Shown one piece after another: positions 18,361-57,682 of a stretch of 64,000 bases of DNA (position 1 is the first letter of the stretch; the number at the start of each line of letters is the position of its first letter). A program made the position numbers and the translations under genes. This DNA comes from a candidate division TA06 bacterium B3_TA06 (GTDB lineage: Bacteria; Hydrothermota; Tepidihabitantia; B3-TA06), in contig NJBO01000002.1 in NCBI GenBank assembly GCA_005223075.1, forward strand, positions 1,836 to 65,835, written 5' to 3'. Below the pieces are notes generated by a model, which searched no databases, was not told the DNA's origin, and worked only from the letters and a program-made list of their open reading frames with translations.

Positions 18361-18735
18361 CCCCCTTCCCCTAACCCCTACCCGACGGCCCCAGACGGTG
18401 GGATTAACAGGGCACACTGTCCCACCAGGGGAGGGGAATTAGATAGTAAGCGGGCCGACCTGATACCCTATGGGGCACTCAGTACCCCAAGGGGCACGCT
18501 GAGGTCGGCCCCTACATTCTCAGGCGAAAGGGAGCATTAAAGATCGCCACCATCCCTTCGGTCGCGATGACTAAGATGGTGTGTTACGGGTACGGGTGTG
18601 TTACGGGTGTTATTTCCTTGTGAACGGAGCGTAAGCTCCGAATAATTATGAGAATGCCCCGAAGGGGTACGGGTACGGGTTGACAGAGGGGTTATTTTCG
18701 GATAAGCTTACGGGCTAGAGCTATTGTAGGAGGAA
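18361..18735. repeat. composite intergenic repeat block. It contains a C-rich motif (CCCCTTCCCCTAACCCCTACC), a REP-like hairpin (CGGGCCGACCT...AGGTCGGCCCCTAC at 18451-18515), the GATCGCCACC.TCCCTTCGGTCGCGATGAC motif, a GTGTTACGG tandem array (18589-18620) and an ~80-bp terminal segment.
   Basis: Each sub-element recurs elsewhere in the window: 36262-36767, 52620-52850, 23878-23962 and others. No coding potential. Confidence 0.7.
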
Positions 18736-18739
18736 GTCC

Positions 18740-19378
18740 ATGTGGGAGAAAAAACCACGTTACGAACGACAGTTGATGCCGGGTGAAGTGCTTTTCCATG
18801 AAGGGGATACAGGCGAGGTGATGTACTTCATCCGCAAGGGCAAGATCAAAATCTCCGTAGGTGAGGAGGATCAGGAAAAGGTGTTTGCGGTGCTTAAGGA
18901 AGGTGATTTCTTCGGCGAGATGGCGGTGATTGACGGCAGCCCGCGATCCGCCAGCGCCACCGCAATAGAGGAAACGGACCTCATAATTATCGACAAGGAG
19001 TCGTTCATCTCCAAGATCAACGAGAATCCGTTGGTCGCTTACGTCATCGAAACACTTACAAAGCGGATTCGCATCCTTGATGAGCAACTCAAGTATCTTA
19101 CCATCAAAAGCGACGAGGAGCGTATCATCCACTTCATCCTGGCTCGCGCCAAGCAACAGGGTACGCCGATGGATGAAGGGGTAAGCCTTGATGAGATCTC
19201 CACTGAGACTATCGCCCATATCACCGGCGTTGACATCAAAAAGGTAGCAGAATACCTGAAGCGCCTGGAAGATGTGGAGCTTATCAAGGTAGGCGACGAT
19301 GAGATCATCGTGCGCAGCATCCCGGACCTGGATGAATACATCCGCTACCTCAAGCTGCGCGATAAGTTCAAGAAATAG
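18740..19378 (+). CDS. Crp/Fnr-family transcriptional regulator (cNMP-binding domain plus C-terminal HTH)
   Basis: Cyclic-nucleotide-binding fold signature (GDFFGEMAVIDG...RSASA) followed by an HTH region. Confidence 0.85.
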   Translation: MWEKKPRYERQLMPGEVLFHEGDTGEVMYFIRKGKIKISVGEEDQEKVFAVLKEGDFFGEMAVIDGSPRSASATAIEETDLIIIDKESFISKINENPLVAYVIETLTKRIRILDEQLKYLTIKSDEERIIHFILARAKQQGTPMDEGVSLDEISTETIAHITGVDIKKVAEYLKRLEDVELIKVGDDEIIVRSIPDLDEYIRYLKLRDKFKK

Positions 19379-19470
19379 CGAACGAGAAAAAGAAAGCCGA
19401 TGACGAATGCTAAGATTTAATCATAGTGGTGTATCTCATTCACAGGTTCCCTCCTAGTTAAAGACCGCTT

Positions 19471-22194: not shown

Positions 22195-23875
22195 GCGGCT
22201 GCGTATCCGAAACTTCGCTTTAATCGATGCGGTGGAGCTCAATCTATCAAAGGGACTCAACGTACTCACAGGGGAAACCGGCACAGGAAAATCAATACTT
22301 CTAGGCGCGCTGTCGGTCGTGCTCGGTGAGCGTATAACGGATGAACTTTTTCGATCGGATAAAGACCCGCTTGAGGTGGAGGCGTCGTTCAGCGTCGATG
22401 ATCTCAAGCTTCCCGACTGGGTAGGCGCCGATCAGGAAGGCGTGCTTCTTATCCTTCGCAGCGCCCTCAAAGGCAAGCGTGCTGCCAACTTCGTCAACCA
22501 GCGTCAGACCACCCAATCAGCACTCTCGAAACTGGGCGACGATCTCGTTGACATCCACGGCCAGCATCAGCACCAGCTTCTCCTGAAACCGGCCACCCAC
22601 GGAAGATTCTTCGATGCCTACGGAGAGCTTGAAGAACTCAAGGAACGGTACGCCGCAAAGTTCAACGATTATCATAAGCTGCTTGATGGGATCAAGAGAC
22701 TGAAACGCGATCTTGCCCAGCGCCGCGAGCAGCGTGACTTTCTTGCCTTCCAGCTTTCAGAGATCGCAAAGCTCGATCCCAAGCCTGGTGAGGTTGCAGA
22801 ACTCAAGAGAGAGCAGGAGCTTTTGGCCTCGGCCGAACGCAGGGAAAAGATGGCAAGTCGGTTGATTGAACTCGTCTCCGAGAAGGAGGCTTCCATACTT
22901 GAAGGGCTGGCGCTTGCAACCCAGATGCTTAAGGATCTGGCAGCACTGGATCCATCACTTCAGGAGACGCTCAAAACCCTGACAGAGGCCGAGGTGGCAA
23001 CAGACGAGGTGTGGCGAACACTGGTGCGCTACCGCTCCTCAATCGAGTACTCACCCCAGCGGCTGGAGGAGATAAACGAACGGTTGTTCGCCTTCGAGAA
23101 GCTCTGGCGCAAGCATAACGTCGACGAGCAGGGACTCGTCAGACTGAGGGCTGATCTGGAGACCAAGCTTTCCTCTATCGAGCTGGACGCCGAGGAGATT
23201 GCCGAACTTGAAAAGGAAGAAGCCAGGCTCCGCGCTGAGGTTGTGGGGCTTGCACGCGAACTCTCCGAGGCAAGAGAAAAGACCAGGGAGGAGTTCCAGC
23301 GTGCTGTGGAAAACCAGCTTGAAGGGTTCGCCATGCCCAAGGCCCGGCTGGCTGTTGAGTTTCCGCGGTCCAATGACCCCGACGGTTTGTATGAAGAGAA
23401 TGGGGTTCGCTACCGGCTCGCTGAGAACGGCCTTGAGGAGACGCAGTTCCTGTTCTCCGCCAACCCGGGGGAGACGCCGAAGCCATTGGCGCGGATAGCC
23501 TCGGGCGGCGAGCTCTCGCGCATCATGCTCGCTTTAAAGACGGTCCTTGTAGACTCAGACCAAGTACCGGTGCTGGTCTTCGATGAGATTGACGTGGGGA
23601 TAGGTGGAAGAACAGCGGAGACGGTGGGCAAACGCCTCAAGGAGCTCGGCAAGAGAAAACAGATCCTTCTCGTGACCCACCTTCCACAGATCGCGCGCTA
23701 CGCCGATCGTCACTTCCGGGTGACCAAGGAGGTCAGGAAAGGAAGAACCCTCACCCGCATCAAAGCGCTGGACAGGAAAGGACGTGTGGAGGAACTTGCC
23801 CGGATGCTGGGTGGAGAGGAGATCACCGATACAGTGCGCGCGCACGCAAAAGAACTCATTGAGGGCACCGAATGA
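22187..23875 (+). CDS. recN: DNA repair protein RecN
   Basis: N-terminal LTGETGTGKSIL Walker A. Long coiled-coil middle. C-terminal SMC-like signature (LSGGELSRIMLAL...VFDEID). Confidence 0.9.
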   Translation: MLERLRIRNFALIDAVELNLSKGLNVLTGETGTGKSILLGALSVVLGERITDELFRSDKDPLEVEASFSVDDLKLPDWVGADQEGVLLILRSALKGKRAANFVNQRQTTQSALSKLGDDLVDIHGQHQHQLLLKPATHGRFFDAYGELEELKERYAAKFNDYHKLLDGIKRLKRDLAQRREQRDFLAFQLSEIAKLDPKPGEVAELKREQELLASAERREKMASRLIELVSEKEASILEGLALATQMLKDLAALDPSLQETLKTLTEAEVATDEVWRTLVRYRSSIEYSPQRLEEINERLFAFEKLWRKHNVDEQGLVRLRADLETKLSSIELDAEEIAELEKEEARLRAEVVGLARELSEAREKTREEFQRAVENQLEGFAMPKARLAVEFPRSNDPDGLYEENGVRYRLAENGLEETQFLFSANPGETPKPLARIASGGELSRIMLALKTVLVDSDQVPVLVFDEIDVGIGGRTAETVGKRLKELGKRKQILLVTHLPQIARYADRHFRVTKEVRKGRTLTRIKALDRKGRVEELARMLGGEEITDTVRAHAKELIEGTE

Positions 23876-23877
23876 CA

Positions 23878-23962
23878 CGTACCCGTAACACCCCCCGTAC
23901 CCCTTCGGGGCATTCTCATAATTATTCGGAGCTTACGCTCCGCTCACAAGGAAATAACACCC
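23878..23962. repeat. inverted copy of the 18606-18685 repeat segment (includes CCGTAACAC units and a CGGAGC-GTAA-GCTCCG hairpin)
   Basis: The reverse complement is nearly identical to 18606-18685. The two copies flank the crp/fnr-prfA-prmC-nadK-recN block in inverted orientation. Confidence 0.8.
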
Positions 23963-23997
23963 CCCGCAACACATCCCCTGACACCCTCCCGGATGCA

Positions 23998-24558
23998 ATG
24001 CCACAGGTGGTTAAAAACCCATGGCGTTTCTGGACGGTCCCCAATATCCTTTCCCTTATTCGACTCGCTATGCTTGCACCAACGGTCTGGGCGCTGGTTA
24101 CCCAACGCAACCTGTTGGCCTTCATCCTGTTCGTGGTCTCCTCTGCTACCGATGCAGTGGACGGGTGGATCGCCCGTCGCTTACATCAGGAAAGCGAGTG
24201 GGGAAAGGTACTCGATCCCCTCGCCGACAAACTCACCCTGAACACACTTGCCATGATCATGGCATTCCAGGGAAGGATACCGCTCTTTCTCGCTCTCATA
24301 GTACTGATAAGGGATGCAATTATCTTGGGAGGTGGCCTGGTGCTCTTGACCTCAAGAACCTTCGTGCCTCAATCCAACTGGCCGGGCAAGATCACCGGCG
24401 TTGCGTTCTTTGCTATGCTTTGCGCCGGCTTACTTGATGCCCGCTGGCTGCTTCGTGGATTCCTTGTCCCGCTGGTAACCGTCCTGGTGTTCATAACCGT
24501 TGTCGTATATACCCACACCTTTTTTCAACGCCTGAATCAAAAGTCCAAGGAGGGATAA
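23998..24558 (+). CDS. CDP-alcohol phosphatidyltransferase family protein (PgsA-like)
   Basis: Signature D-G-x2-A-R-x8-G-x3-D-x3-D (DAVDGWIARRLHQESEWGKVLDPLADK). Multiple transmembrane segments. Confidence 0.85.
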   Translation: MPQVVKNPWRFWTVPNILSLIRLAMLAPTVWALVTQRNLLAFILFVVSSATDAVDGWIARRLHQESEWGKVLDPLADKLTLNTLAMIMAFQGRIPLFLALIVLIRDAIILGGGLVLLTSRTFVPQSNWPGKITGVAFFAMLCAGLLDARWLLRGFLVPLVTVLVFITVVVYTHTFFQRLNQKSKEG

Positions 24559-27268: not shown

Positions 27269-30200
27269 CTAAGGCTGTAACAAAGCGGCCTTGGTTATCC
27301 GCTGGGCCGTAGAAAATTCCTCTGATTCCTCGTCCGTTCGCCGCTCACGCCACCCCAGTGTGTAGATATAAACACCAGGCGCTGGACGGTGACCACTTTC
27401 CGTCAAACCGTCCCAGTGAGCCTCAAAGATGCCGCCGAACTCATAGAAAACCTCGTCTATCAGTGTACGGATGTGCTCGCCGGCTCGGTTGTAGATGCGA
27501 AGCGTCACCAGTCCCGCACGAGGGATGCTGAACGCAAACGTCGTTGAGCCGCTGAACGGGTTCGGGTAGTTGTGGATATCCAATACAGGCTCGAAGCGCG
27601 TCATGATAAGAACGCTGTCGTTCACCAGAGTAGGATCGTCGGTGTAGTAAGTCCGGATCCACACTATCCTGTGTTCGGTTACCGTGGTGTCGAACGCACC
27701 TGCTATACTGCCAAGCTCCTCGTGAGGCCTCACAACCAGACGCGCCACTACCATCTTGGCAGAATCCACAGATCCCAGATCAGGAACGCCGTCATTATCC
27801 TCGTCCAGGAGAGGGGTTCCGTCCTCAAAGCTCAGGGTATGGCTCCAACCCAGATCAGGTGCCGCGTAGCTGCCGATGTCGATAATGTCATACGTGCTGC
27901 CGAGATTGGTTACCCGAAGCAGGTATACCGCCTCCTCGCCAGGACCGATTATCGTGCCCGTGTCCGGCTCGATATCCAGCGCCACTATGTTTCGCGTGCG
28001 TGTTACCACTATCGCGCTGTCGTATACCGTATCGCTGATCGAGGAGCGAGCGTAGACTATGGTTGAATCGAAAAGACCCGGAAGCGCCCAGTAGGGCGGC
28101 GTCACGTCAAGATACAGCATATCAAATCCAGGAACACCCCCGACAAGACCGGCCAAGGTGTCCAGATCAGGGATGTCGTCACCATCGGTGTCCGCAAGAT
28201 CGTTGATCCCGTCCTTGTCAACAAGCCGGTGAACCCAATCCGATTGACCAGGTTCAAAGGTAATGTCCGGAACGTCAGGACCGTTGCCGTAATTGGAAAC
28301 CTTTAAAGGATAGCGAATCGTCTGACCTGAAGGAACCGAATCCAACGTGTCGGGGATGATAAGTAGATCTGGAACAGCGTTAACCGTCACGATCAGAACC
28401 GCGGTGTCGGCAACCAGCTCCACAGGGTAAAGACGCGAGGGGTAGTTCACTGAGGCCCCAGCGAGGTGGATAACAGCGCTGTCACCAGCCATAGCTGTAT
28501 CAGGAACATCAACACGAACCTGGAAGGGAGCCGGTATCTCCTCAGGAAGAACATTCGGGACGTCAGGGTTGCCGTCACCATCACTATCACTAAGACCGAC
28601 CAACTCAACCGGCCACGTAACAGGATCCTTGTTAGAGCTCCAGGTAAGATTGACCGTATCCTCGCGGTAAAGGCTCGTGTTTAGCGCATACACCGAGAAT
28701 ACCGCCGACTCATCAGGATAGGCGGACTCACGCACCGTATCCGGACCTACCTCAATACTCACCTCGAGGATAGTAGTCACAAGAAACGCTGTATCCAGTC
28801 TGGTAGTATCCCGCATGGATACGACGCTGAAGAAACAGGTATCCATAGCTCCGAAAGGCACGGTATCCGAGGGGGTCACGTCGGCTAGCACAAGAACGTT
28901 CCCGCCCTTAGGCAAGGTGTCGGTATCGGGGTTGCCGTCGCCGTCAACGTCAGGCAGGGTGCGGCCCAGCTCGTCGGAAAGGGAGGTGCTGAAGTTTAAA
29001 GAATCGCTGTTCTCTGTGAAGATGTTGATAACGTCCCATATGTTGCCGTTGTTCTCGACGTAGACCTCGTAGGCGCCGTCATCTGTTTGGCTGGTGGAAA
29101 CCAGACATTCGGTATCCTTAAACTGATCCGGGTAGGCGGCAACAGCCGGGTGTATCGCAAACCAGAGAGGCAAGAAGTCTGACCCTTGACGATCAAGGCA
29201 GCTTCCCATAGTCGCCACCCCTTCAGAAGTAGTCACATGGTAGATTGCAACTGCATCGGCATCGTCCAGCGGACAGGAGTAACGGTAGAACTCGCCCCTG
29301 TCAAGGGTTCCCTCGTAGATGGTCGTCTCCTCGTTCCCTCCAGACTTTGGGGTTCTTGTTACCTTTACATCGGTACTGTCGGAGAATGCAATAACGTGAA
29401 GCCGGGAGTAAATAAGCCCAATATCAGACCATGAAACGGAGGCCTGAAGCGGAATATAGAACTCCTTTCCAAGCCCTAAACCGTCGCGGTCAATCCCTCG
29501 AACCATGTAAAAAGCAACGTGGTGTATTCCGAAGCTTGTCCATTCGGTCTGTGAAACAGAGATATCCTTGTCCGCGTGGATGTAAAGCGGCCTGCCCCCC
29601 GTAGGTAATGGAACTGCAAATCCCTTAATCTTGCCTCTCTTCTCACAGAATATCCTTCGAATTGTATCGGCAGGATTATTAAGATCAGTAACCGTTACCC
29701 ATGTTTCGTCTTCCCAGGGAACGAATTGAATATCCTGGGGGGCAGTTCCCCACATATGTTGGTAGGTCATGAAATCCCGGCCAGTGAAAGTTCCGTTGAA
29801 CGCAGGTACGTACATCCCGTTAACGCCGCAGGAGGTCATAGTTGATACAGGACGTGTGGCCTCTACTGAGTAAACTATGGGAGGAACATCTCCCCCCTCA
29901 CGCAAGTAGTACTCGGCACTGTCAAGATCACCCTCCCAGATAACCGTTTGGTTTTCCATATTCCGGACAACCACATGGGTATTATTGTGATAGGCAAAAA
30001 CAGCCAGGATCGCTTCATTAGCTGGGATCCCAGTCGACTTCGGACCTACGGACAACAACTTCGTACTGAGCGGACGACTATTCTGATCCACCGCATACCA
30101 GGTGCCTAACCCCCTCACGAAGGGATCGCCGCTGAGAACCGAGAACTCTTTGCTACCCAGAACCTCATATACTCCCCACGGTATGTCCTTGACAAGGACA

Positions 30201-30535
30201 TATTCTTCGTTCATGAGAACGCCGGACCAAACTGAGTCGCCAGCGTCATTAAGAATCCTACAGTAGTTACTGTCCCCGTAGGAGAATATAACAATATCGC
30301 CGTAGGTGTAGGCAAAGGTAGCAAAGGTATCTTCCTCCTGGGGAATCATCGGAAGATCAAGTTTCCCTACGTAATGGGTTTGCTCCACAGTTCCCTCAAA
30401 TAAAGGTGCTGGTCGGGTAGTATCCCTTTCCACATAGTCTTGCACCAATACATCGCTCGGCTCAACCGCCTGAGCCAGCCCGATTTGCACCCCCCCTAAG
30501 AGCAATATGCTCACTATTACAACAACACGCCGCAT
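27269..30535 (-). CDS. large (1088 aa) secreted multi-domain protein with canonical T9SS CTD (NYPNPF...)
   Basis: Signal peptide. The N-terminal ~500 aa are ~90% identical to 32114..34033, and an internal ~240 aa segment is paralogous to 31359..32087. The C-terminus has the NYPNPFSGSTTFAFSIP...LRIYNRAGEHIRTL...GVYIYTL motif. AGGAGG ribosome-binding site. Confidence 0.85.
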   Translation of the reverse strand: MRRVVVIVSILLLGGVQIGLAQAVEPSDVLVQDYVERDTTRPAPLFEGTVEQTHYVGKLDLPMIPQEEDTFATFAYTYGDIVIFSYGDSNYCRILNDAGDSVWSGVLMNEEYVLVKDIPWGVYEVLGSKEFSVLSGDPFVRGLGTWYAVDQNSRPLSTKLLSVGPKSTGIPANEAILAVFAYHNNTHVVVRNMENQTVIWEGDLDSAEYYLREGGDVPPIVYSVEATRPVSTMTSCGVNGMYVPAFNGTFTGRDFMTYQHMWGTAPQDIQFVPWEDETWVTVTDLNNPADTIRRIFCEKRGKIKGFAVPLPTGGRPLYIHADKDISVSQTEWTSFGIHHVAFYMVRGIDRDGLGLGKEFYIPLQASVSWSDIGLIYSRLHVIAFSDSTDVKVTRTPKSGGNEETTIYEGTLDRGEFYRYSCPLDDADAVAIYHVTTSEGVATMGSCLDRQGSDFLPLWFAIHPAVAAYPDQFKDTECLVSTSQTDDGAYEVYVENNGNIWDVINIFTENSDSLNFSTSLSDELGRTLPDVDGDGNPDTDTLPKGGNVLVLADVTPSDTVPFGAMDTCFFSVVSMRDTTRLDTAFLVTTILEVSIEVGPDTVRESAYPDESAVFSVYALNTSLYREDTVNLTWSSNKDPVTWPVELVGLSDSDGDGNPDVPNVLPEEIPAPFQVRVDVPDTAMAGDSAVIHLAGASVNYPSRLYPVELVADTAVLIVTVNAVPDLLIIPDTLDSVPSGQTIRYPLKVSNYGNGPDVPDITFEPGQSDWVHRLVDKDGINDLADTDGDDIPDLDTLAGLVGGVPGFDMLYLDVTPPYWALPGLFDSTIVYARSSISDTVYDSAIVVTRTRNIVALDIEPDTGTIIGPGEEAVYLLRVTNLGSTYDIIDIGSYAAPDLGWSHTLSFEDGTPLLDEDNDGVPDLGSVDSAKMVVARLVVRPHEELGSIAGAFDTTVTEHRIVWIRTYYTDDPTLVNDSVLIMTRFEPVLDIHNYPNPFSGSTTFAFSIPRAGLVTLRIYNRAGEHIRTLIDEVFYEFGGIFEAHWDGLTESGHRPAPGVYIYTLGWRERRTDEESEEFSTAQRITKAALLQP

Positions 30536-30600: not shown

Positions 30601-30628
30601 TTGACAGAATTCCAATCAGGCATAGAGT
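30601..30628 (+). promoter_or_regulatory. sigma70-like promoter TTGACA-N16-TAGAGT; the ATG is 6 nt downstream, suggesting a leaderless transcript
   Basis: Consensus -35. The -10 ends 6 nt before the ATG at 30634. Confidence 0.4.
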
Positions 30629-30633: not shown

Positions 30634-31362
30634 ATGCCCGCACCCGTAACACCCGTAACACCCGTAACACGCACACCCTTAACTCTCAGGAAGGATCGGG
30701 AAGGAATCCCAAGGATTTGTGTAAAAACCCACACCCTCTCCCCTGCTGACGAGATCGGCGAGGTGGTCGAGCGCTACGCGGCTAGGTATCTAAAGCCGGG
30801 CGACATCGTGGTGCTTGCCGAATCGCCTCTGGCCATCACCCAGGGCAGGGCGATACCAGTAAAGCAGATGCATCCCAGACTTTCGGCAAGGATACTGTGG
30901 CGGTTCGTGCGCAAGGTTCCCTACGGTGTGGGCCTACGCAATCCTTTCTCAATGGAAGCTGCAATTGAAGAGTGTGGTGTGTTACGGGTATGGTTCGCGG
31001 CGATCCTAGGTGGATTCTTGAGGATGCTGGGACGGAGAGGCGATTTCTACAGGATTGCGGGAATCCAGGCGCGGATGATTGATGCGGCAGGAACATCACC
31101 TGTCAAGCCCTACGACGAGTGCGTGCTCAAAGGGCCTAAAGAACCCTACGAGGTGGTCAAGGGATTAAAGAACCGCTTCGGGGTTGAGTTCGCGATAATG
31201 GACATAAACGACATCGGCGGCTCCTGGGCGGTTGCTGCGACTTCGAGGATCAACCGAGCGGCACTTGAGGAGCTGATGCGCGACAACCCCATGGGTCAGG
31301 GCACCCAGCTGACGCCGATTACGATCGTGAGAGCAAGAGGAACCGAGCTGCTCTTAGACTAG
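30634..31362 (+). CDS. CofE-like (F420-0:gamma-glutamyl ligase family) protein whose N-terminus contains (PVT)3 encoded by a CCCGTAACA tandem repeat
   Basis: IPRICVKTHTL.P.DEIGEVVERYAARYLKPGDIVVLAESPLAITQGRAIPV resembles the CofE/F420-ligase N-terminal fold. The family call is from memory. The start is chosen at the first canonical ATG; no other in-frame start exists before the conserved region. Confidence 0.5.
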   Translation: MPAPVTPVTPVTRTPLTLRKDREGIPRICVKTHTLSPADEIGEVVERYAARYLKPGDIVVLAESPLAITQGRAIPVKQMHPRLSARILWRFVRKVPYGVGLRNPFSMEAAIEECGVLRVWFAAILGGFLRMLGRRGDFYRIAGIQARMIDAAGTSPVKPYDECVLKGPKEPYEVVKGLKNRFGVEFAIMDINDIGGSWAVAATSRINRAALEELMRDNPMGQGTQLTPITIVRARGTELLLD

Positions 31363-32087
31363 CGGATAATCACCTTCCTTCGCAGCCTTTGACTTCCTCC
31401 TTCCCGGACAGAAACGAAGTAGACCCCTTGAGACAGATGGGATAGATCGATCTCCGCACGAGGTTCCTCTATGATCTCGGACAGAACCCTGCGGCCAAGA
31501 GCGTCGAAGATGCTAATAGAAACATCATCTCCACTAGTATCACCAAACGATAGGTAAAGTGTGTTACAGGCAAAATTCGAGTGTAGCTCCAAGGCCCCTT
31601 CCTCCTCCAGATGCTCTTCAACAAAAGTCCCACGCACAATCGTAACTACAGTGGCCGAATCGTAAACCGTATCGTTGATCGAGGAGCGAGCGTAGACTAT
31701 GGTTGAATCGAAAGAACCCGGAAGCGCCCAGTAGGGTGGAGTCACGTCAAGATAGAACGTATCAAATCCCGGAACGCCCTCAACAAGACCGGCCAGGGTG
31801 TCCAGATCAGGGATGCCGTCACCATCGGTGTCCGCGAGATCGCTGATGCCGTCCTTCGAAACAAGACGGTGAACCCAATCCGGTTCGCTTGAGGTAAAGG
31901 TGATGTCAGGTACATCGGGATCATCCCCAAAATTGAGAACCTCAAGAGGATAACGAATGGTTTGCCCCGCAGGAACCGAATCCAACGTGTCAGGAACGAT
32001 AAGAAGCCCAGCAACAGGTAATGGCAACGCGTATATTCCGGAAGCCATTACTAATAAGCACACCCCCATCAACACAAAGCGCTTCAT
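31359..32087 (-). CDS. small secreted protein with T9SS CTD, paralogous to an internal domain of 27269..30535
   Basis: Signal peptide and AAGGAGG ribosome-binding site. LLIVPDTLDSVPAGQTIRYPLEVLNFGDDPDVPDITF...TIVYARSSINDTVYDSATVVT matches residues ~690-870 of the 1088-aa protein. It has its own CTD (...ISIFDALGRRVLSE...GVYFVSVREG...RKVIIR). Confidence 0.8.
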   Translation of the reverse strand: MKRFVLMGVCLLVMASGIYALPLPVAGLLIVPDTLDSVPAGQTIRYPLEVLNFGDDPDVPDITFTSSEPDWVHRLVSKDGISDLADTDGDGIPDLDTLAGLVEGVPGFDTFYLDVTPPYWALPGSFDSTIVYARSSINDTVYDSATVVTIVRGTFVEEHLEEEGALELHSNFACNTLYLSFGDTSGDDVSISIFDALGRRVLSEIIEEPRAEIDLSHLSQGVYFVSVREGGSQRLRRKVIIR

Positions 32088-32113
32088 CGCTCCTCCTTTA
32101 TACTCAGAGTTCT

Positions 32114-34033
32114 TTACTTACAAACGACCACCTTACGGGTGATGCGCCCGCTCTGCCCTCTCTTAGCTGAGATAAAGTAAACACCCCGGGGAAAGCCTGA
32201 CACATCTATACTTGCCTGCGATTCCTGGATAGTCCTGGATAAAACCCTGCGGCCTGTTACATCGAATATATCAAGCTGGAGTTCTTCTCTAGCAGGATTC
32301 AAAACGTATACCACATCCTGCCCAAAGGCGAACCTAAGCTCGAAATGAGCCCCCACAAAAGGTTTCTCGCTCACGGAGCCGGGAATAATCCTGGTTATAA
32401 GAAATGCCGTATCACACTTGGTCGTATCACGGGAAGAGACCACTCTGAAGTAACAGGTATCAACAGTCCCAACCGGCACAGTATCCGAAGGGATGACGTC
32501 AACAAGCACAAGGGCGCTTCCGCGTCTAGGCAAGGTATCGGTGTCAGGATTGCCGTCGCCGTCAACGTCAGGCAGTGTGCGGCCCAGCTCGTCGGAAAGT
32601 TCGGTTACAAAATCAGGATCCAGGCTGTTCTCTGTGAAGATGTTGATAATGTCCCATACGTTGCCGTTGTTCTCGACACAGACTTCGTAGCAACCCTGGT
32701 CGGTCTCAGAAACAGGAACCCCGGGGTAAGTCTCTCTAAACTGATCAGGATAGGCGGCAACAGCCGGATGGATCCCAAACCAGAGAGGCAAGAAGTCGGA
32801 GCCCTGGCGATCAAGGCAGCTTCCCATAGTCGCCACCCCTTCAGAAGTAGTCACATGGTAGATTGCAACTGCATCCTCATCGTCCATCGGACAGGTATAA
32901 CGATAGAATTCACCTCTGTCAAGGGTCCCTTCATAGATACCTGTTTCGTCCCCACCGTCTCTTGGAATCCTGGTCACTTTTATATCGGTGTTGTCAGAAA
33001 AAGCTATAACGTGAAGACGAGAATAAACGGGCCCAATAGCAGCCCATGAAACGGAGGCCTGAAGAGGGATATAGAACTCCTTTCCAAGTCCCAAACCATC
33101 GCGGTCAATCCCTCGAACCATGTAAAAAGAAACGTAGTCTGTGCCGAAGCTTATCCATTCGGTTTGGGAAACAGATATGTCCTTGTCCGCGTGGATGTAA
33201 AGTGGCCTGCCCCCCGTAGGTAATGGAACTGCAAATCCCTTAATTTCCCCTCTTTTCTCACAGAATACGTGCCAGATCGTATCTGTCGGATCACCCAGCC
33301 GGGTAACGGTCACCCGTGTTTCGTCTTCCCAGGGAACGAATTGAATATCCTGGGGGGTAGTTCCCCACATATGTTGGTAGGTCATGAAGTCCCGGCCAGT
33401 GAAAGTTCCGTTGAACGCAGGTACGTACATCCCGTTAACGCCGCAGGCGGTCATAGTTGATACAGGACGTGTGGCCTCTACTGAGTAAACTATGGGAGGA
33501 ACATCTCCCCCCTCACTCAAGTAGTACTCGGCACTGTCAAGATCACCCTCCCAGATAACCACCTGGTTTTCCATATTCCGGACAACCACATGGGTATTAT
33601 CATTATAGGCAAAAACAACCAGGATCGCCTCAAGATCTGGGCTAAAAGTTGACTTCGGACCTACGGACAACAACTTCGTACTGAGCGGGCGACTATTCTG
33701 ATCCACCGCATACCAGCAGCCTAACCCTCTACCAAAAGGGTCACCGCTGAGAACCGAGAATTCTTTGCTGCCCAGAACCTCATATACTCCCCACGGTATG
33801 TCCTTGACAAGGACATATTCTTCGTTCATGAGAACGCCGGACCAAACTGAGTCGCCAGCGTCATTAAGAATCTCACAGTAGTTAATGTCTGAGTAAGAAA
33901 ATATCACGATATCCCCAAAGGTATAGGCGTAGGTGGCAAAGGTATCTTCACTTTGAGCGGTATATCCCCATTGGGATACCTGGGGATTTGAAACCATCCC
34001 CAGGAGACTAAAGATGATAAAAAAGCACATCAT
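32114..34033 (-). CDS. secreted protein with T9SS CTD, N-terminal paralog of 27269..30535
   Basis: About 90% amino-acid identity and near-identical DNA stretches (e.g. 29461-29640 vs 33081-33260). It has its own CTD (...LDIFDVTGRRVLSRT...GVYFISAKRG...RKVVVCK). AAGGAGG ribosome-binding site. Confidence 0.85.
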   Translation of the reverse strand: MMCFFIIFSLLGMVSNPQVSQWGYTAQSEDTFATYAYTFGDIVIFSYSDINYCEILNDAGDSVWSGVLMNEEYVLVKDIPWGVYEVLGSKEFSVLSGDPFGRGLGCWYAVDQNSRPLSTKLLSVGPKSTFSPDLEAILVVFAYNDNTHVVVRNMENQVVIWEGDLDSAEYYLSEGGDVPPIVYSVEATRPVSTMTACGVNGMYVPAFNGTFTGRDFMTYQHMWGTTPQDIQFVPWEDETRVTVTRLGDPTDTIWHVFCEKRGEIKGFAVPLPTGGRPLYIHADKDISVSQTEWISFGTDYVSFYMVRGIDRDGLGLGKEFYIPLQASVSWAAIGPVYSRLHVIAFSDNTDIKVTRIPRDGGDETGIYEGTLDRGEFYRYTCPMDDEDAVAIYHVTTSEGVATMGSCLDRQGSDFLPLWFGIHPAVAAYPDQFRETYPGVPVSETDQGCYEVCVENNGNVWDIINIFTENSLDPDFVTELSDELGRTLPDVDGDGNPDTDTLPRRGSALVLVDVIPSDTVPVGTVDTCYFRVVSSRDTTKCDTAFLITRIIPGSVSEKPFVGAHFELRFAFGQDVVYVLNPAREELQLDIFDVTGRRVLSRTIQESQASIDVSGFPRGVYFISAKRGQSGRITRKVVVCK

Positions 34034-36309: not shown

Positions 36310-36410
36310 AATTCATCATATCATGCAGCGGATGTTGCCGTTCTTATAAGGAATCGTAGTTCTCGTAGGGGCCGGTCTTTAGACCGGCCCGGATATGGAG
36401 ATTAATATAG

Positions 36411-36438
36411 CGGGCCGACCTGAAGGTCGGCCCCTACG
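36411..36438. repeat. REP-like palindromic element (CGGGCCGACCTGAAGGTCGGCCCCTACG)
   Basis: Family with copies at 18451, 36729, 41334, 41779, 44796, 52782, 58499 (inverted) and 51281 (diverged). Confidence 0.75.
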
Positions 36439-39967: not shown

Positions 39968-40117
39968 CCCGTAACACCGTAACACGCCTCCACTCCCACG
40001 GGGATTTCGCTTCTAACAAAACCATAGTATCAAGGGTGCATTGATGGTGCGCCCTTCCTTTTTGTTACCTTGACAACCCACCACTCTGAGGTTATCCTGA
40101 GCAAACAAGGAGGCAGC

Positions 40118-40874: not shown

Positions 40875-40950
40875 CGTCACAAAAAAGCTGGTCAAAAGCT
40901 GGACAAAAGCTCCCCAAAAGCTGGTCAAAAAGTGGACAAATCAAGGACAA
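40875..40950 (+). repeat. iteron-like array of ~6 degenerate 11-13 bp direct repeats (AAAGCTGGTCAAA / AAGCTGGACAA / AAGTGGACAAA)
   Basis: Direct repeats adjacent to an AT-rich stretch (41090-41140) and the hairpin repeats. Non-coding. Confidence 0.6.
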
Positions 40951-41052: not shown

Positions 41053-41277
41053 AGAAAAAGGTGGACAGGGACGCGACTGCGTCGCGATTGCAAATATCAA
41101 ATTGCAAAATGCAAATTTTAAAATGATGGTGCGGCTGCGGAGCAGACGTCTGGGGTTAAAAATTCGGGTAATTTCGGGTTGATTTATTATAGGGGAAGCG
41201 GTTTCCCCGCTCCCTTTATCCCCTTATTCATCTCAGCCCGCTTTTTTAATCGGGCCTTTTACCCTCACTCTTCAGAA

Positions 41278-41392
41278 CACCTTGAGGAGATTCGTAGGGG
41301 CGTACCTTTAGGTGCGCCCGCATGATTTAATCGGGCCGACTTGACGCGTAGCGGCGTCTGATCGCCAAAGTCGGCCCCTACGAGCTTACTTA
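41278..41392. repeat. MITE-like element (ACACCTTGAGGAGATTCGTAGGGGCGTACCT..AGGTGCGCCCGCATGATTTAATCGGGCCGAC...GTCGGCCCCTACGAGC)
   Basis: Copies at 41741-41815 and 44702-44835. The last carries a nested insert of a second repeat. Confidence 0.75.
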
Positions 41393-41701: not shown

Positions 41702-41740
41702 TAAAACCTCCTACTAAAGAAAATACAATTAATACAAGAT

Positions 41741-41815
41741 TCGTAGGGGCGTACCTTTAGGTGCGCCCGCATGATTTAATCGGGCCGACTTTCAAGTCGG
41801 CCCCTCTCTCCGTGC
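41741..41815. repeat. MITE-like element copy (includes the REP hairpin CGGGCCGACTTTCAAGTCGGCCCC)
   Basis: Near-identical to 41281-41345 and 44765-44830. Confidence 0.75.
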
Positions 41816-44701: not shown

Positions 44702-44940
44702 TAAGAACACCTTGAGGAGATTCGTAGGGGCGTACCTCAGCGTGCCCCTTGGGATACCGTGTATCCCATAGGGTATTAGGTCCGCCCGCATGATTTAATC
44801 GGGCCGACTTTCAAGTCGGCCCCTACGAGCTTTAATCATAAAATTATCTTATACTCGGATACATCTTTGTCAAGTGGATTTAAAGCGTGTAGCGCGAGGC
44901 TTCAGCCTCGCTGGCGAACCTTAAGGTTCGCACTACATGA
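44702..44940. repeat. MITE-like element (with nested insert) followed by the second copy of the promoter-bearing repeat
   Basis: See 41278 and 43277. Confidence 0.7.
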
Positions 44941-44977
44941 ATAGCCCGTAACACAAGGCGCGCCCTTAATCTCTTCC

Positions 44978-45015
44978 GGGGTCCCCGCGACGTTGCAAGG
45001 CAACGGCGTGGGGTG
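44978..45015 (+). repeat. covarying hairpin repeat, copy B
   Basis: GGGGTCCCCGCGACGTTGCAAGGCAACGGCGTGGGGTG. Confidence 0.7.
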
Positions 45016-45017
45016 CA

Positions 45018-45632
45018 TCAGTGGGTGATGGTGATGCGGCGGATGGTGTCCGGAGGAATACCCTCGTCTTCATTACCGTTGCGCAACTGCATCACCACGT
45101 CCATGCCTTCGATCACTCGACCGAATACGCAGTAGTTGCCGTCAAGGTCAAGCGCCGGCTCAAGGCAGATGTAGAACTGACAAGACGCGGAGTTCCGGGC
45201 AGCGCCGCGTGCCATGCCAACCGCACCCTTAATATGCGATCGGCCGCTTTCCTCGTAGTCTATGGTGTAACCTGCGCTGCCCTGACCGGTGCCCAGAGGG
45301 TCGCCGCCCTGAATCACAAAGCCGCCGACGTAGCGATGCCAGATAAGGCCGTCGTAGAAGCCCGCATCTGCAAGCCTGATGAAGTTGCGCACAGTGTTCG
45401 GCGCCTCCATTGAATAGAGCTTGAACGTAAAGCTTCCCTTGTTGGTCTCAACCACAGCGCACTCGTTCCCGGTGAGCTTGACCGGATTGCTTTTCACGCG
45501 AAGCGCAAGCCCCACCCTCTCCTTGGCAGAAAGGTTGTAGGTATCGGGTATCGAAGGCTGAACCGCCTTAACACACGCAAGTCCTGCAAGCAGAACCAGG
45601 GACGTGAATCCGGCGAGGCGAACAAGCTTCAT
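45018..45632 (-). CDS. cyclophilin-type peptidyl-prolyl cis-trans isomerase, secreted/lipoprotein
   Basis: FYDGLIWHRYVGGFVIQGGDP...GAVGMARG...CQFYICL..LDGNYCVFG.VIEGMDVV. Signal peptide ending LACVKA. Confidence 0.88.
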   Translation of the reverse strand: MKLVRLAGFTSLVLLAGLACVKAVQPSIPDTYNLSAKERVGLALRVKSNPVKLTGNECAVVETNKGSFTFKLYSMEAPNTVRNFIRLADAGFYDGLIWHRYVGGFVIQGGDPLGTGQGSAGYTIDYEESGRSHIKGAVGMARGAARNSASCQFYICLEPALDLDGNYCVFGRVIEGMDVVMQLRNGNEDEGIPPDTIRRITITH

Positions 45633-52619: not shown

Positions 52620-52850
52620 TTCTTCCCCCGAAAAAAATCGTCATCGCGACCGATCGAAGGGAGGGTGGCGATCTCATGGCACTTTGTTGAAAACACAATG
52701 GAATGTGCTATGGGATTGCCACGCAAGCCTTCGGCTTGCTCGCAATGACAGTAATAGAAAGCCCGCGTTATCGATCTTATTCGGGCCGACCTAATACCCT
52801 ACGGATGTATAAACATCCGAGGGGCACGCTGAGGTCGGCCCCTACGTTAT
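52620..52850. repeat. composite repeat block in inverted orientation (GTCATCGCGACCGATCGAAGGGAGGGTGGCGATC motif plus REP-like hairpin with nested insert at 52782-52847)
   Basis: Reverse-complement matches to 18535-18580 and to the 18451-18515 REP variant. Confidence 0.7.
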
Positions 52851-52859
52851 TACAGGACA

Positions 52860-55492: not shown

Positions 55493-56283
55493 GATTCATA
55501 GTCTGCATCAAACAGGTGCCTGATACTACCGAAGTGCGGGTCAACCCTGAAACGAACACCCTGATCCGTGAAGGCGTTCCAGCAACAGTTAACCCCTTTG
55601 ACCTGTACGCGGTCGAGGAAGCCTTGCTTCTAAAGGAGAAGTTCGGCGGTGAGGTTATTGCCATCTCCATGGGACCTCCTCAGGCCGAGGAAGCGTTGCG
55701 CGAGGTGATCTCCATGGGAGTTGACAAGACCATTCTGATCTCCGATTCCAAGTTCGCCGGGGCCGATACATGGGCAACCTCGCTGACCCTCGCCGCTGCC
55801 ATCCGTAAGATCGGTGATTACAACATCATCTTCACAGGAAAGCAAGCCGCAGATGGCGACACCGCACAGGTAGGGCCGGGTATCGCAGAGTTCCTCGACA
55901 TCCCTCAAGCTACGTTCGTAAGAAAGGTGGATGAGCTGAACCCTGATAAACAGACTATAAGATTGCAGTCGATGTGGGAGGAGGGATCTGAACGCTTAGA
56001 GCTTCCCCTCCCCTGCCTTATTACGACGGTCAAGGAACTTAACGAACCGCGTCTACCCAGCCTGCGCGGCAAACTTACGGCAAAGAAGGCCGAGATCCCG
56101 CTCTGGAGCTTTGATGAGCTTGCGGTTGAGAAAAAACACGTGGGCCTTGCAGGTTCTCCCACCCAGGTAATCAAGGTCTTCCCACCTCCACCTCGCGCTG
56201 AAGGAGAACTCTTCGCAGACGCAGACCCGGACGAAGCTGCACGCATCATTGCGGATAAATTAACCGAGAAGGGGCTGCTCTGA
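55489..56283 (+). CDS. etfB: electron transfer flavoprotein beta subunit
   Basis: MRFIVCIKQVPDTTEVRVNPETNTL. 264 aa. The 4-nt overlap with fabF suggests an operon. Confidence 0.9.
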   Translation: MRFIVCIKQVPDTTEVRVNPETNTLIREGVPATVNPFDLYAVEEALLLKEKFGGEVIAISMGPPQAEEALREVISMGVDKTILISDSKFAGADTWATSLTLAAAIRKIGDYNIIFTGKQAADGDTAQVGPGIAEFLDIPQATFVRKVDELNPDKQTIRLQSMWEEGSERLELPLPCLITTVKELNEPRLPSLRGKLTAKKAEIPLWSFDELAVEKKHVGLAGSPTQVIKVFPPPPRAEGELFADADPDEAARIIADKLTEKGLL

Positions 56284-57470
56284 TACCATTACGTATTGAC
56301 TACGATCGCTGCACCCTTTGCGGCGAGTGCCTGCCCGCATGTCCGTTTGGTGCCCTGAGGATTCGAGATGATCGCCTATATGTGCTTGAGACCTGCAACT
56401 TGTGTGGGGCGTGCGTACCTGTCTGCCCGGAGGATGCCTTATCAATAGAGGAAGTTAAACGAACTAAAGAGATCGATCCCAGTGAGTGGCGCGGCGTGTG
56501 GGCCTTTGCAGAGCAGCGGCGGGGCGAGATTCAATCCTCGACTTACGAGCTTTTGGGATCGGCCAGGGGGCTGGCTGGAAAGCTCAACGTGCCGGTAACC
56601 GCAATATTGCTCGGAAACGAAGTGAAGGGACCTCGCTCGCTCCTTGCGGCCGGGGCCGACGAGGTGCTCTACGTTAAGAATGAGACCCTGGATCACTTCG
56701 GGGTTGAGCCTTACTCGAAGGCTATCGCCGACCTCATTTCCGAGCGCAAGCCAGAGATCGTTCTCGGTGCTGCGACCTTCATCGGGCGTTCGCTTCTTCC
56801 GCGCATCGCGGTGAGAGTGCATGCCGGGCTGACCGCGGACTGCACCGGGCTTGATGTCGACACCGAGAAGCGGCTCCTGCTTCAGACCCGCCCTGCGTTC
56901 GGCGGAAACATCATGGCCACCATCATCTGCCCCCAGCACCGACCACAGATGGCCACCGTGCGCCCTAAGGTAATGAAACCTCTGGAAGAACCCTACAACT
57001 CAAAGGGCAAAGTCTCTGAAATCTCGGTGGATTCGGCATCCAACCGTGTTCGCTTCCTTGAGTTCGTGGCCGACGACACCTCTCAGATCAACATCGCCGA
57101 GGCCGATATTATCGTCACCGGTGGAAGGGGGCTGCAGGATCCGAAGAACTTTGCCCTCATCGAGGAGCTTGCCGGTCTCCTCGGTAGTGCGGTTGGCGCA
57201 TCACGTGCCGCAGTAGACGCGGGCTGGATCAACTACTCACACCAGGTCGGTCAGACAGGCCGCACCGTCTCGCCCAAACTCTACATCGCAGTAGGGGTGT
57301 CAGGCGCCATCCAGCACCTTGTGGGGATGCAGTCATCGGACTACATCATCGCTGTTAACAAGGACCCAAACGCACCTATCTTCAAGGTGGCTGACGTAGG
57401 CATAGTGGGCGATCTGTTCGAGGTCGTTCCGAAGCTGATCGAGGAGATCAAACGCCGCAAGGGGGAATAA
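56283..57470 (+). CDS. etfA: electron transfer flavoprotein alpha subunit fused to an N-terminal 2x[4Fe-4S] ferredoxin domain; the 5' end is uncertain (first canonical start GTG 56382, but the conserved Fd motif begins upstream)
   Basis: The frame is open from 56259. It encodes CTLCGECLPACP (cluster 1) before the first GTG (56382), then CNLCGACVPVCP (cluster 2). The EtfA core follows (...IAVGVSGAIQHLVGM...). Confidence 0.8.
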   Translation: MPLRIDYDRCTLCGECLPACPFGALRIRDDRLYVLETCNLCGACVPVCPEDALSIEEVKRTKEIDPSEWRGVWAFAEQRRGEIQSSTYELLGSARGLAGKLNVPVTAILLGNEVKGPRSLLAAGADEVLYVKNETLDHFGVEPYSKAIADLISERKPEIVLGAATFIGRSLLPRIAVRVHAGLTADCTGLDVDTEKRLLLQTRPAFGGNIMATIICPQHRPQMATVRPKVMKPLEEPYNSKGKVSEISVDSASNRVRFLEFVADDTSQINIAEADIIVTGGRGLQDPKNFALIEELAGLLGSAVGASRAAVDAGWINYSHQVGQTGRTVSPKLYIAVGVSGAIQHLVGMQSSDYIIAVNKDPNAPIFKVADVGIVGDLFEVVPKLIEEIKRRKGE

Positions 57471-57622
57471 CATTCCCTAAAGCCACTATGCAGGGCACTA
57501 TCTCAAAAGTAACCCTGAATCCGCTTGATTCCAGCGATGTTGTCTATCGAGAGGTGCTGTATCCTTATAACCGAAGCTATGGCTCCAGATAATGACAAGA
57601 ATCCCCAGAAAGGATGTGGTGC

Positions 57623-57682
57623 GTGTTACGAGGTATTACGGGGTGTTACGGGGTGTTACGAGGTGTTACGGGGTGTTACGGG
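57623..57682 (+). repeat. tandem array (~6.5 copies) of the 9-bp unit GTGTTACGG/GTGTTACGA, overlapping the coaE start
   Basis: gtgttacgaggtattacggggtgttacggggtgttacgaggtgttacggggtgttacgg. Related arrays at 18589-18620, 23878-23905 (revcomp), 30643-30678 (revcomp) and 39965-39985 (revcomp). Confidence 0.8.

Follow-up and report, generated by a model that had tools for sequence, protein, structure and literature searches.

Strain-variable 9-bp tandem arrays in WOR-3 bacteria and the small hairpin element inserted in them

Short head-to-tail arrays of the unit GTGTTACGG recur beside the crp/fnr, pgsA-like, CofE-like, rubrerythrin and coaE genes in a 64,000-nucleotide stretch of contig NJBO01000002.1 (positions 1,836 to 65,835) from candidate division TA06 bacterium B3_TA06; this whole stretch is hereafter called the window. 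What are such arrays doing there: do they bind a regulator, do they switch the neighbouring genes on and off, or are they repeats that the genome tolerates? A first-pass annotation had described them as 9-bp, frame-keeping repeats placed at gene 5′ ends, and had proposed either a variable-number tandem repeat (VNTR) affecting expression or a binding-site array for a regulator, with the adjacent Crp/Fnr protein as a candidate. Our analysis indicates that the arrays are probably a selfish or neutral family of dispersed VNTRs, lineage-specific to WOR-3 and accompanied by a mini-element compatible with reading frames, and not a dedicated operator.

The exact unit occurs 13 times in the window, where 0.26 occurrences are expected, and none of 100 shuffled sequences reached 13, which rules out chance or base composition as the source of the arrays. 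When up to two mismatches to the unit are allowed, the excess is small (157 sites versus 133 expected), so that the signal is carried by near-perfect units. The search yields five arrays, at the places given by the first-pass annotation, and two single copies, at 30979 and 44946. The copy at 30979 was rejected as a family member, since it is ordinary coding sequence for the motif ECG[VE]LR[VI]W conserved in homologues. Tandem Repeats Finder and the exact search both confirm head-to-tail units, the program calling 30641–30670 with period 9, 39964–39985 with period 8, and 57623–57682 with period 10 (six copies, score 99). With periods of 8, 9 and 10 bp in the window, and 6-bp GGGTAC units present as well, a 9-bp unit whose change in number keeps the frame is a property of some arrays only. 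Pfam searches confirmed the gene names used so far, namely a Crp/Fnr-type regulator, a RecN-like ATPase, a CDP-alcohol phosphatidyltransferase, an F420-ligase-like protein, rubrerythrin and CoaE. The arrays are located as follows (the caret marks the insertion point of the mini-element described below).

18581–18612, + strand: distal part of the crp/fnr array, GTGTTACGG GTACGG GTGTGTTACGG GTGTTA, ending at the TGTTA^ insertion point
18670–18679, + strand: proximal remainder of the crp/fnr array, CGGGTACGGG, abutting the −35 hexamer
23876–23897, − strand: 5′ units of the pgsA array, C-rich on the + strand and read T-R-T-R-N-T-P-R
23955–23985, − strand: degenerate units of the pgsA array beyond the mini-element, GTGTCAGGG, GTGTTGCGG and GGTGTTA on the − strand
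30637–30678, − strand: CofE-like array, with three perfect 9-bp units at 30644–30670
39963–39988, − strand: rubrerythrin array, period 8, starting at the stop codon
44946–44954, − strand: solitary unit, an exact match, in a repeat-rich spacer
57623–57682, + strand: coaE array, six units, period 10

At the crp/fnr locus, unit number varies among genomes that encode the same regulator. Six metagenome contigs encode a Crp protein 100% identical to that of the window, and the arrays upstream differ ahead of an invariant block, GGGTTGACA...GGAGGAAGTCCATG; at least six upstream alleles exist among contigs with this identical protein. Two units are found in L003, three in L001 and four in L030 (related loci are designated by L numbers), while L005 has the units of the window minus a 57-nt element. 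This element is present upstream of crp in L002 and L006 as in the window, and absent from L005, L003, L001 and L030. The array itself also occurs in L020 and L007, from other species. The proximal block of the array is constant in all crp alleles and species compared, and the distal units vary; beyond the array the spacer is unalignable between species, and the units are nevertheless perfect. The 3′ end of the array exactly meets a conserved TTGACA, which belongs to the following feature.

18680–18708, + strand: putative crp/fnr promoter, TTGACA-N17-TAAGCT, followed by the Shine-Dalgarno sequence AGGAGGA and the ATG at 18740

We propose this promoter from its conservation, the block being invariant across strains and two other species; its −10 hexamer (TAAGCT) is weak, with 3 of 6 matches, and the site went uncalled in a consensus scan. 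Variation among strains or close relatives is likewise seen in the pgsA, rubrerythrin and coaE arrays, and in the array of an HdrA-like gene. Downstream of rubrerythrin, for instance, the window has two units of period 8, its close relative L086 four, and L034 seven mixed ones. The suspicion that these are VNTRs was therefore correct, and the comparison of copy numbers across strains, suggested as a check, found them not to be identical. Exact-protein look-ups with four proteins of the window (ETF-alpha and ETF-beta, the two electron transfer flavoprotein subunits, rubrerythrin, and a 242-aa neighbour) gave no match, and strain comparisons at their loci were made through homologue searches or loci from the genome scan described next.

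One genome per species, for 185,579 species, was scanned for three consecutive units with 0–2 nt between them, and at least 120 loci were returned. Among the matches listed, the majority (about 68 of 120) come from eight species-level metagenome-assembled genomes of WOR-3/Candidatus Stahlbacteria (CBFGKC01, DAOVCF01, SOJW01, JAGMDF01, JAYELY01, JAFGSK01, WJJO01 and CAZUXE01), and CBFGKC01 by itself has at least 20 loci with three or more units. Over 6.8 kb, the window shares about 96% identity with SOJW01 (Stahlbacteria E44_bin36), and we place its source genome in Candidatus Stahlbacteria (WOR-3). Four of its five array loci also bear an array in another species-level genome, and arrays stand at the same positions (crp, recN/pgsA and rubrerythrin) in genomes whose flanking genes are only 77–86% identical. 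Over 534 kb of WOR-3 loci, the spacing between successive unit cores is 9 bp in 157 cases and 10 bp in 47, with a tail from 6 to 12 bp. A universal motif was considered and rejected: among the matches listed, those in other taxa share no context with the WOR-3 arrays. The Nostoc match is a GVTGVG-repeat protein, the match in the Pseudomonas fluorescens group is one orthologous iteron-like locus, the Bacteroidales and Fimbriimonadaceae matches are period-8 arrays of unrelated context, and the Streptomyces match likewise lies outside the WOR-3 context. Judged from these genome comparisons, the family as such is specific to WOR-3. As a separate observation, phage contigs L176, L179–L183, L187, L188, L190, L193 and L194 share a palindrome, (CCGTAACAC)x3-ACCTAAAGGTGT-(GTGTTACGG)x3, which by its sequence looks like an origin or operator; inverted arrays of a similar kind occur in L008, L077 and L195.

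The 57-nt element, TTTCCTTGTGA[A/G]CGGAGCGTAAGCTCCGAATAATTATGAGAATGCCCCGAAGGGGTA, which the first-pass annotation had overlooked, splits both the crp and the pgsA array, in opposite orientation (inverted pair I1, 69 nt, 99% identity). These two copies and a putative third are located as follows.

18613–18669, + strand: crp copy of the 57-nt hairpin mini-element, TTTCCTTGTGAACGGAGCGTAAGCTCCGAATAATTATGAGAATGCCCCGAAGGGGTA, absent from matching alleles and with covariation in its stem
23898–23954, − strand: pgsA copy of the 57-nt mini-element, in frame and read TPSGHSHNYSELTLRSQGNN, carried by L001 and the window but not by L002
57553–57622, + strand: putative degenerate copy near coaE, assigned from its similarity to an intact element a few units downstream in L127

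Copies collected from genomes and metagenomes share a left end, GTGTTA followed by T-N-TCCTT, and a right end, CCCCGAAGGGGTA followed by CGG, while their interiors vary. Lengths of 45, 48, 57, 60, 69 and 84 nt occur, plus one class of 122 nt, and the length is a multiple of 3 in 28 of 29 distinct sequences. The insertion point lies between TGTTA and the C of a unit (GTGTTA^ ... GGGGTA^CGG), and the 12 true copies found with an orientation-neutral probe all lie the same way round relative to the G-rich strand of the flanking units. Filled and empty alleles exist at the crp, pgsA and coaE loci and in the HdrA-like gene (P0138 versus P0140). At the recN/pgsA junction, the array is contiguous in L002, contains the element in the window, and in L001 has the element with one extra unit on each side; the array of this junction is also found in L092 (eight units) and L037. 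Positions 45005–45020 of the window, near the solitary unit at 44946, are an empty site reading GGGGTGCATC where L034 and L162 carry the mini-element and an array. In L034, at about 3190–3260, an array also supplants the stop codon of a cyclophilin gene and extends the C-terminus (PPVTHPVTPRNTT, then stop) as far as the TAA frame of the array itself; the cyclophilin of the window is unextended.

The element folds into a covarying hairpin near its left end and an invariant hairpin at its right end. In the left stem (CGGAGC/GCTCCG, helix 1), changes on both sides are seen at 4 of 6 pairs; the column pair 19–28, paired throughout, reads A-U 12 times, G-C 8 and U-A twice. The covariation score was not reached by any of 500 shuffles, and 89.9% of stem cells are paired as against 25–52% when the partners are slid. 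The ends have no clear terminal inverted repeats; a weak YYCCTT resemblance is all that they share. Reading frames that carry VTG, RNT or VTP on through the element are mostly open, and copies stand in frame without breaking the open reading frame (ORF) in HdrA-like, glycosyltransferase, pgsA-like and ferredoxin-like genes; the TPSGHSHNYSELTLRSQGNN peptide is also inserted in the glycosyltransferase of L047. The element holds a promoter-like match, TTGTGA-N17-AATAAT (18618–18646, + strand), directed at crp. From sequence, this could be a chance match or an outward promoter as in Correia elements, which are known to carry such promoters.

Are the arrays bound to gene starts, as the first-pass annotation had it? 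The 534 kb of WOR-3 loci do not bear this out, for there we also see arrays at the 3′ ends of genes, between genes that converge, and, in frame, well within genes. Nor did a hand count reveal an orientation bias relative to flanking genes (13 same versus 18 opposite), and this absence of a general bias also led us to discard targeting to a replication strand. The array downstream of rubrerythrin was correctly placed; it lies between the stop codon and a terminator-like hairpin (40032–40056), in a 3′ untranslated stretch. About a fifth of the arrays are in frame inside genes, among them an HdrA-like oxidoreductase (GVTGVTGVTGV...TGVTGVTG), FeoB, MurE (TRNTRNTRNTRN), MazG (PVTHPVTHPVTH), a GGDEF protein, an OmpA/TolB-like protein and a glycosyltransferase. 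In the HdrA-like alignment, distant relatives have no insert (TGEPGTGWQGA), whereas closer ones carry the array alone or the array plus the element, with differing unit numbers; the repeat-encoded stretch includes GVTGVTGV-MSLRPE. Near-identical strains also differ in a second, small RNT-type array of the HdrA-like protein (residues ~117–125 of P0138/P0140; L131, L039), which reads TTRNTHRNTQK or TTRNTKK or is missing.

The use of reading frames is far from random. In 19 of 21 arrays well inside long ORFs, every spacing between units is divisible by 3, as against 11 of 40 clearly non-coding arrays. The 19 frame-preserving coding arrays use the frames GVT, RNT and PVT only, none being read as VLR or CYG, and the sixth frame contains TAA; a ferredoxin-like gene found later (L151/L164) is an exception in using CYG. 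Purifying selection acting on a repeat that lands at random is expected to leave such a pattern. The same counts bear on the idea that the arrays are contingency loci, in which changes in unit number would switch genes on and off as simple sequence repeats do in Neisseria or Haemophilus. Copy number is indeed polymorphic between strains, and several arrays overlap starts or N-termini; phase variation, however, works by shifting a frame or the −35/−10 spacing, and we found neither. Spacings in 19 of the 21 coding arrays are multiples of 3 and would cause no frameshift, promoter arrays lie 5′ of the −35 hexamer and leave its distance to the −10 unaltered, and the period-10 coaE array is upstream of the likely GTG start. 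Moreover, the genes concerned (coaE, pgsA, murE, feoB) are housekeeping genes and not surface antigens. On-off switching is hence a most improbable role for the arrays.

In the window, the arrays at the pgsA-like, CofE-like and coaE genes probably bear on protein N-termini. The first-pass annotation had the second array upstream of the pgsA-like gene; an array is present there, but it probably lies inside the ORF listed here.

23872–24558, + strand: pgsA-like ORF (CDP-alcohol phosphatidyltransferase), Pfam domain from residue 54

The ATG at 23872 overlaps the stop codon of the recN-like gene (ATGA), and the first ~40 codons span the array and the mini-element, with MTRTRNTPRTPSGHSHNYSELTLR as the repeat-encoded peptide stretch. 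The ATGA overlap and the open frame are kept despite differing unit numbers (228 aa in the window, 234 in L001, 208 in L002, 221 in L092 and 206 in L037), and the array spacings in these five are all 6, 9 or 12 nt. For these reasons the array and the element are probably translated as the N-terminus of the protein, although an alternative start may lie at ATG 23998. The CofE-like array is read as MPAPVTPVTPVTRTPL from ATG 30634, giving the repeat-encoded stretch MPAPVTPVTPVTR. In most species CofE-like homologues start with M-[IT]-L-[RT]-K just ahead of the conserved domain; this ATG is lost in the clade of the window, where two in-frame canonical start codons are left ahead of the domain, TTG 30589 (the mechanical ORF start) and ATG 30634; the latter is placed 6 nt past a promoter-like TTGACA-N16-TAGAGT (30601–30628). 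The N-terminal extension varies among close relatives. The array thus probably forms the N-terminus of the protein, and the (PVT)3 stretch read from it earlier is very probably translated.

As for coaE, the Pfam domain begins at 57682, the last array unit holds the last in-frame GTG (57673), and a GAGG Shine-Dalgarno-like run lies at 57660. In L127, with 97% protein identity at coaE, a 60-nt variant of the element sits inside the array and upstream of GTG 57673. From the start of the domain, the position of the L127 element and the preceding GAGG, GTG 57673, within a repeat unit, is the likely coaE start, in line with the reported overlap of array and GTG. The sister species L128 has neither array nor element at coaE and a different N-terminus, and the coaE array is therefore younger; the spacer of L128 is unalignable with that of the window, and the exact empty-site junction is not derivable from it. 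The ETF-alpha ORF upstream of coaE (56382–57470) has a GTG start and a truncated 4Fe-4S domain (Pfam match from profile position 6), and gene calls for it vary among relatives (324 aa in L127, 364 in L128, 346 in L129).

One class of positions is not expected of tolerated repeats. On the G-rich strand, 26 of 169 non-redundant arrays (about 15%) have a TTGAC, in 23 cases TTGACA, within 30 nt 3′ of the array and mostly at 2–10 nt, and in many of these a TATAAT-like hexamer comes ~17 nt later. Each of the three remaining configurations of array and −35 has 2–3 cases, and for a 30-nt stretch the background is 3.1%. Conversely, in the 40 nt upstream, 18 of 385 distinct TTGACN-N16–18-TANNNT sites have at least two G-strand units, and 2 sites have C-strand units there (p = 4e-4). 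With orthologues collapsed, about 12–15 independent promoter-adjacent loci remain. Given that the arrays have no general orientation bias relative to flanking genes, this oriented excess is specific to promoters. Three readings are possible: the arrays act as an upstream promoter element; or, the unit being one step from a −35 hexamer (GGGTTACGG to GGGTTGACG), arrays spawn promoters; or GGGTTGACA promoters are proto-sites at which arrays arise. An effect of the arrays on expression, as first proposed, is thus not borne out as a phase switch, while the subset abutting promoters may have some effect of this kind.

Could the arrays then be binding-site arrays for a global regulator or nucleoid protein acting at promoters, all other copies being by-products? 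The oriented, position-specific excess directly 5′ of −35 hexamers would fit, and so would the crp-proximal block, which is invariant across strains and species while the distal units vary. The unit sequence is conserved across species, and iteron-like tandem or inverted GTGTTACG arrays in unrelated phage and mobile-element contigs mean that proteins reading such repeats exist. On the other hand, roughly a fifth of the arrays sit within genes, in frame, and further ones occupy 3′ untranslated regions or the stretches separating convergent genes, periods of 8, 9 and 10 bp place successive units on different faces of the helix, and in the crp allele of the window the 57-nt element, 11 nt from the −35, displaces all full units, apparently without cost. 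No candidate protein was identified. We consider general binding arrays decidedly unlikely. The more specific proposal of a Crp/Fnr operator is not supported by the sequences: the units are direct repeats without the dyad symmetry of Crp/Fnr-type sites (TGTGA-N6-TCACA or TTGAT-N4-ATCAA), and arrays, which may point either way with respect to their neighbouring genes, occur at many unrelated loci and within ORFs. Adjacency to crp is one case of many.

The G-rich strand might also be retained for its own sake, by forming G-quadruplexes (GGG-TGTTAC-GGG) that modulate transcription or replication. Arrays of period 9–10 do give GGG tracts with 6-nt loops, and a canonical motif (four tracts of at least three G, loops of 1–7 nt) is found in 68 of the 169 arrays taken with 12-nt flanks. 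The motif is present in 60% of promoter-adjacent arrays versus 38% of the others, a difference that is not significant (p = 0.087). Most arrays, however, have 3–4 units without four G3 tracts, those of period 8 have only GG, and the conserved core of the unit is GTTACG and not the G-run; a quadruplex role is very unlikely.

How, then, did arrays and element come to share one unit? The element resembles derivatives of the insertion sequence (IS) family IS200/IS605 in its fixed pentanucleotide target, single orientation, hairpins and lack of clear inverted repeats; its membership of that family is unproven. By the criteria for IS630/Tc1-mariner miniature inverted-repeat transposable elements, a TA duplication is possible, the ends are weakly alike and the orientation is strictly single; the junction fits a TA duplication or no duplication equally well. 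The arrays themselves could have been seeded by the transposition machinery of the element (IS200/IS605-like, single-strand and target-specific) instead of growing by independent slippage: alternative cleavage at neighbouring TGTTA/GGGTA sites would move flanking units along with the element, and excision of the element would leave array-only loci. Several features would follow from such seeding. Besides its fixed target, single orientation and hairpins, the element has a right end, GGGGTA, that resembles the target TGTTA; none of the true copies examined lacks an adjoining array unit, and elements are often in tandem with exactly one unit between them. One unit sequence is common to many loci and species, and apparent proto-sites are seen at array-free orthologues, namely GGT ACG GGT TGG in the HdrA-like gene of L132, where relatives have (GTT ACG GGT)n TGG, and the empty site at 45005 of the window. 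On the other side, empty alleles are contiguous arrays, so that arrays can predate the element, and the junction suits an IS630/mariner-type TA duplication equally. No transposase for the element, whether of Y1 or another type, and no longer element with the same ends was found in ~0.9 Mb (the window and related loci); the transposase search was made by tblastn with approximate query sequences for IS608 TnpA, IS200 TnpA and RAYT (REP-associated tyrosine transposase; REP, repetitive extragenic palindrome). A metagenome scan with the right end of the element returned 43 loci, all short elements or chance matches. The only RAYT-like gene was in L019 (6396–6950, − strand), from the genome of the closest relative, and was rejected as the partner of the element since it is flanked by a different REP: its flanks (~6362–6390 and ~6965–7010) are inverted GGAGTGCRACAACCGTGTTGTYGC hairpins, a third repeat type distinct from the arrays and from the GTAGGGG hairpins described below. 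Seeding of the arrays by transposition seems to us a rather unlikely account.

We thus return to the reading that the arrays are a dispersed, selfish or neutral VNTR family. Its unit is GTGTTACGG; the period is mostly 9 bp, and variants run from 6 to 12 bp. Slipped-strand mispairing would most likely add and remove units, giving rise to the copy-number differences between strains, and variant units would spread in local blocks. Such blocks are seen (GTGTTGCGG x3, then GTGTCGTGG x2, then GTGTTACGG x3), and are a signature of slippage or unequal exchange. Selection would purge disruptive copies, so that the surviving arrays stand at gene boundaries or in frame, the tolerated frames yielding small or polar tripeptides (VTG, RNT, PVT). 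Each unit holds the docking site, between TGTTA and C and in one orientation, of a non-autonomous hairpin element of 45–84 nt, whose length, almost always a multiple of 3, permits residence in frame. Effects on genes would be by-products: a new start in coaE, N-terminal extensions in the pgsA-like and CofE-like proteins, and a change in 3′ untranslated length at rubrerythrin. Of this account, the sequences themselves show the family, its polymorphism, the conserved positions, the coding copies with their bias of frame, and the target and orientation of the element; that slippage changes the lengths, that the arrays are neutral and how the element transposes are inferences.

Several points weigh against this interpretation. 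That one 9-mer dominates across loci and species is unexplained by slippage, and calls either for selection on the unit or for some process specific to its sequence. Units that stay perfect at orthologous sites, within a spacer that cannot be aligned, fit constraint as well as they fit concerted evolution. The arrays adjoining −35 hexamers are unexplained, and pure junk would not predict them; the failure to find a transposase, reported above, belongs here too. The loci were selected for containing an array, which biases densities, and gene calls in the related loci are crude ORF calls. All comparison DNA comes from metagenome assemblies, although arrays of 20–70 bp fit within single reads. 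Unit-like sequence at array-free sites fits seeding at proto-sites, whether by slippage after a small duplication or by transposition carrying units.

A bolder proposal, which we think unlikely and offer tentatively, is that arrays and element together constitute one mobile system new to bacteria, in which a target-specific, probably single-strand machinery multiplies its own docking site; in a weaker version, a WOR-3 protein reads the arrays. If it were true, GTGTTACGG arrays would be seeded at unit-like proto-sites, including −35-proximal GGGTTGAC sequences and G-T-G codons, and VTG/RNT/PVT linkers, new starts and promoter-upstream modules would be written into housekeeping genes across a candidate phylum. 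In the weaker version the arrays would be read as an upstream promoter element.

The window contains other repeats. None of them, nor any other part of the window, matched an Rfam model at the gathering threshold, and searches of the window for tRNA and tmRNA were negative. Modular spacer repeats are abundant, particularly GTAGGGGCCGACC...GGTCGGCCCCTAC hairpins. A second family, unrelated to the arrays, consists of REP-like hairpins, GTAGGGGC(C/G)...GGTCGGCCCCTAC, with shared flanking modules such as GCATGATTTAATCGGGCCGAC; combinations resembling bacterial interspersed mosaic elements occur in many spacers. Sites of this family (repeat families D9–D12, I3–I9) are:

18450–18523: REP-like hairpin
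36362–36438: REP-like hairpin
36725–36763: REP-like hairpin
41288–41389: REP-like hairpin
41737–41813: REP-like hairpin
44723–44834: REP-like hairpin
52817–52853: REP-like hairpin
58476–58538: REP-like hairpin

One spacer carries other short tandem repeats, AAAAGCTGGTC x4–5 and ATTGCAA x4.4 (40883–40940 and 41087–41125), unrelated to the GTGTTACGG family. An IS30-like transposase ORF with HTH_38 and rve domains (37188–38123, + strand) has no visible connection to the arrays; sequence overlapping its 3′ end (37996–38131) recurs inverted 20 kb away at 58314–58498, beside the spacer downstream of coaE (I2 91%, I4 93%), and the two may represent IS ends or a solo end. Direct repeats of ~1.5 kb, 78–89% identical (D2–D5; 28020–29630 versus 31660–33245), link a 1088-aa ORF (27269–30535, − strand) and a 639-aa ORF (32114–34033, − strand), which are paralogous, surface-protein-like and flank the CofE-like gene. 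Finally, a coding repeat, …IYDxxGRKVDE… (D8; 565–605, 2276–2316, 8944–8984, 15330–15370 and 18200–18240), corresponds to FlgD_ig or type IX secretion (T9SS)-type C-terminal sorting domains of several secreted proteins, for example a C10 peptidase (16462–18048).

WOR-3 (Stahlbacteria) is known almost only from metagenome bins. For such an uncultured phylum, the family is a ready VNTR-type marker for strain typing. Assemblies break at these promoters because arrays lie there, several contigs terminating inside the crp array. Annotation is affected as well, the true starts of the pgsA-like, CofE-like and coaE genes lying in or across repeats, and enzymes of the HdrA, FeoB and MurE type bear inserts that the repeats encode and that differ from strain to strain. 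From the oriented link to −35 hexamers one could learn either how promoters originate or how regulation comes to recruit a repeat. In the literature searched, no repeat biology for WOR-3 is described, and the combination seen here, a frame-tolerated 9-bp VNTR that is the exclusive, oriented docking site of a mini-element with a length in multiples of 3, is likewise undescribed for the motif or for WOR-3.

Its separate parts have counterparts elsewhere, which we compare from general knowledge. Short tandemly repeated repetitive (STRR) sequences are heptamer arrays of heterocystous cyanobacteria. Like them, the arrays have a short tandem unit, many dispersed and mostly non-coding loci, lineage specificity, conservation among related species and no assigned function; they differ in their 9-bp unit (7 in STRRs), in being able to stand in frame within genes, in serving as targets of a mini insertion element, and in the phylum concerned. 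The mycobacterial interspersed repetitive units (MIRU-VNTRs) of Mycobacterium tuberculosis are similarly dispersed and strain-variable in copy number, lie between operon genes, keep the frame and overlap flanking stop and start codons, as at the pgsA ATGA; their unit, however, is about 40–100 bp as against 9 bp. We know of no report of MIRUs deep inside conserved enzymes or as targets of mini-elements. As to insertion at a repeat, IS1397, ISKpn1 and IS621 also use a dispersed host repeat as insertion site, but their targets are palindromic REPs and the insert is a full IS, whereas the WOR-3 arrays are direct tandem targets and receive a non-autonomous insert. IS200/IS605 derivatives share with our element terminal or near-terminal hairpins, the lack of evident terminal inverted repeats, a fixed motif of 4–5 nt and a single orientation; IS608, for example, inserts 3′ of TTAC. 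They differ from it in that no TnpA (Y1) gene was found in the loci searched here, a TA duplication is possible, and the element is smaller than is typical. In its coding behaviour the element resembles the Rickettsia palindromic elements (RPEs), small hairpin repeats that likewise lie in frame within coding genes, have a frame-compatible length and add a peptide without destroying the protein. RPEs measure about 100–150 bp and are not known to have a tandem-repeat target, unlike the 45–84-nt element described here, which is confined to TGTTA^C in one orientation. The WOR-3 family would thus be the second clear case, after the RPEs, of selfish DNA fitted to reading frames, and here in two tiers, the array and the element that targets it.

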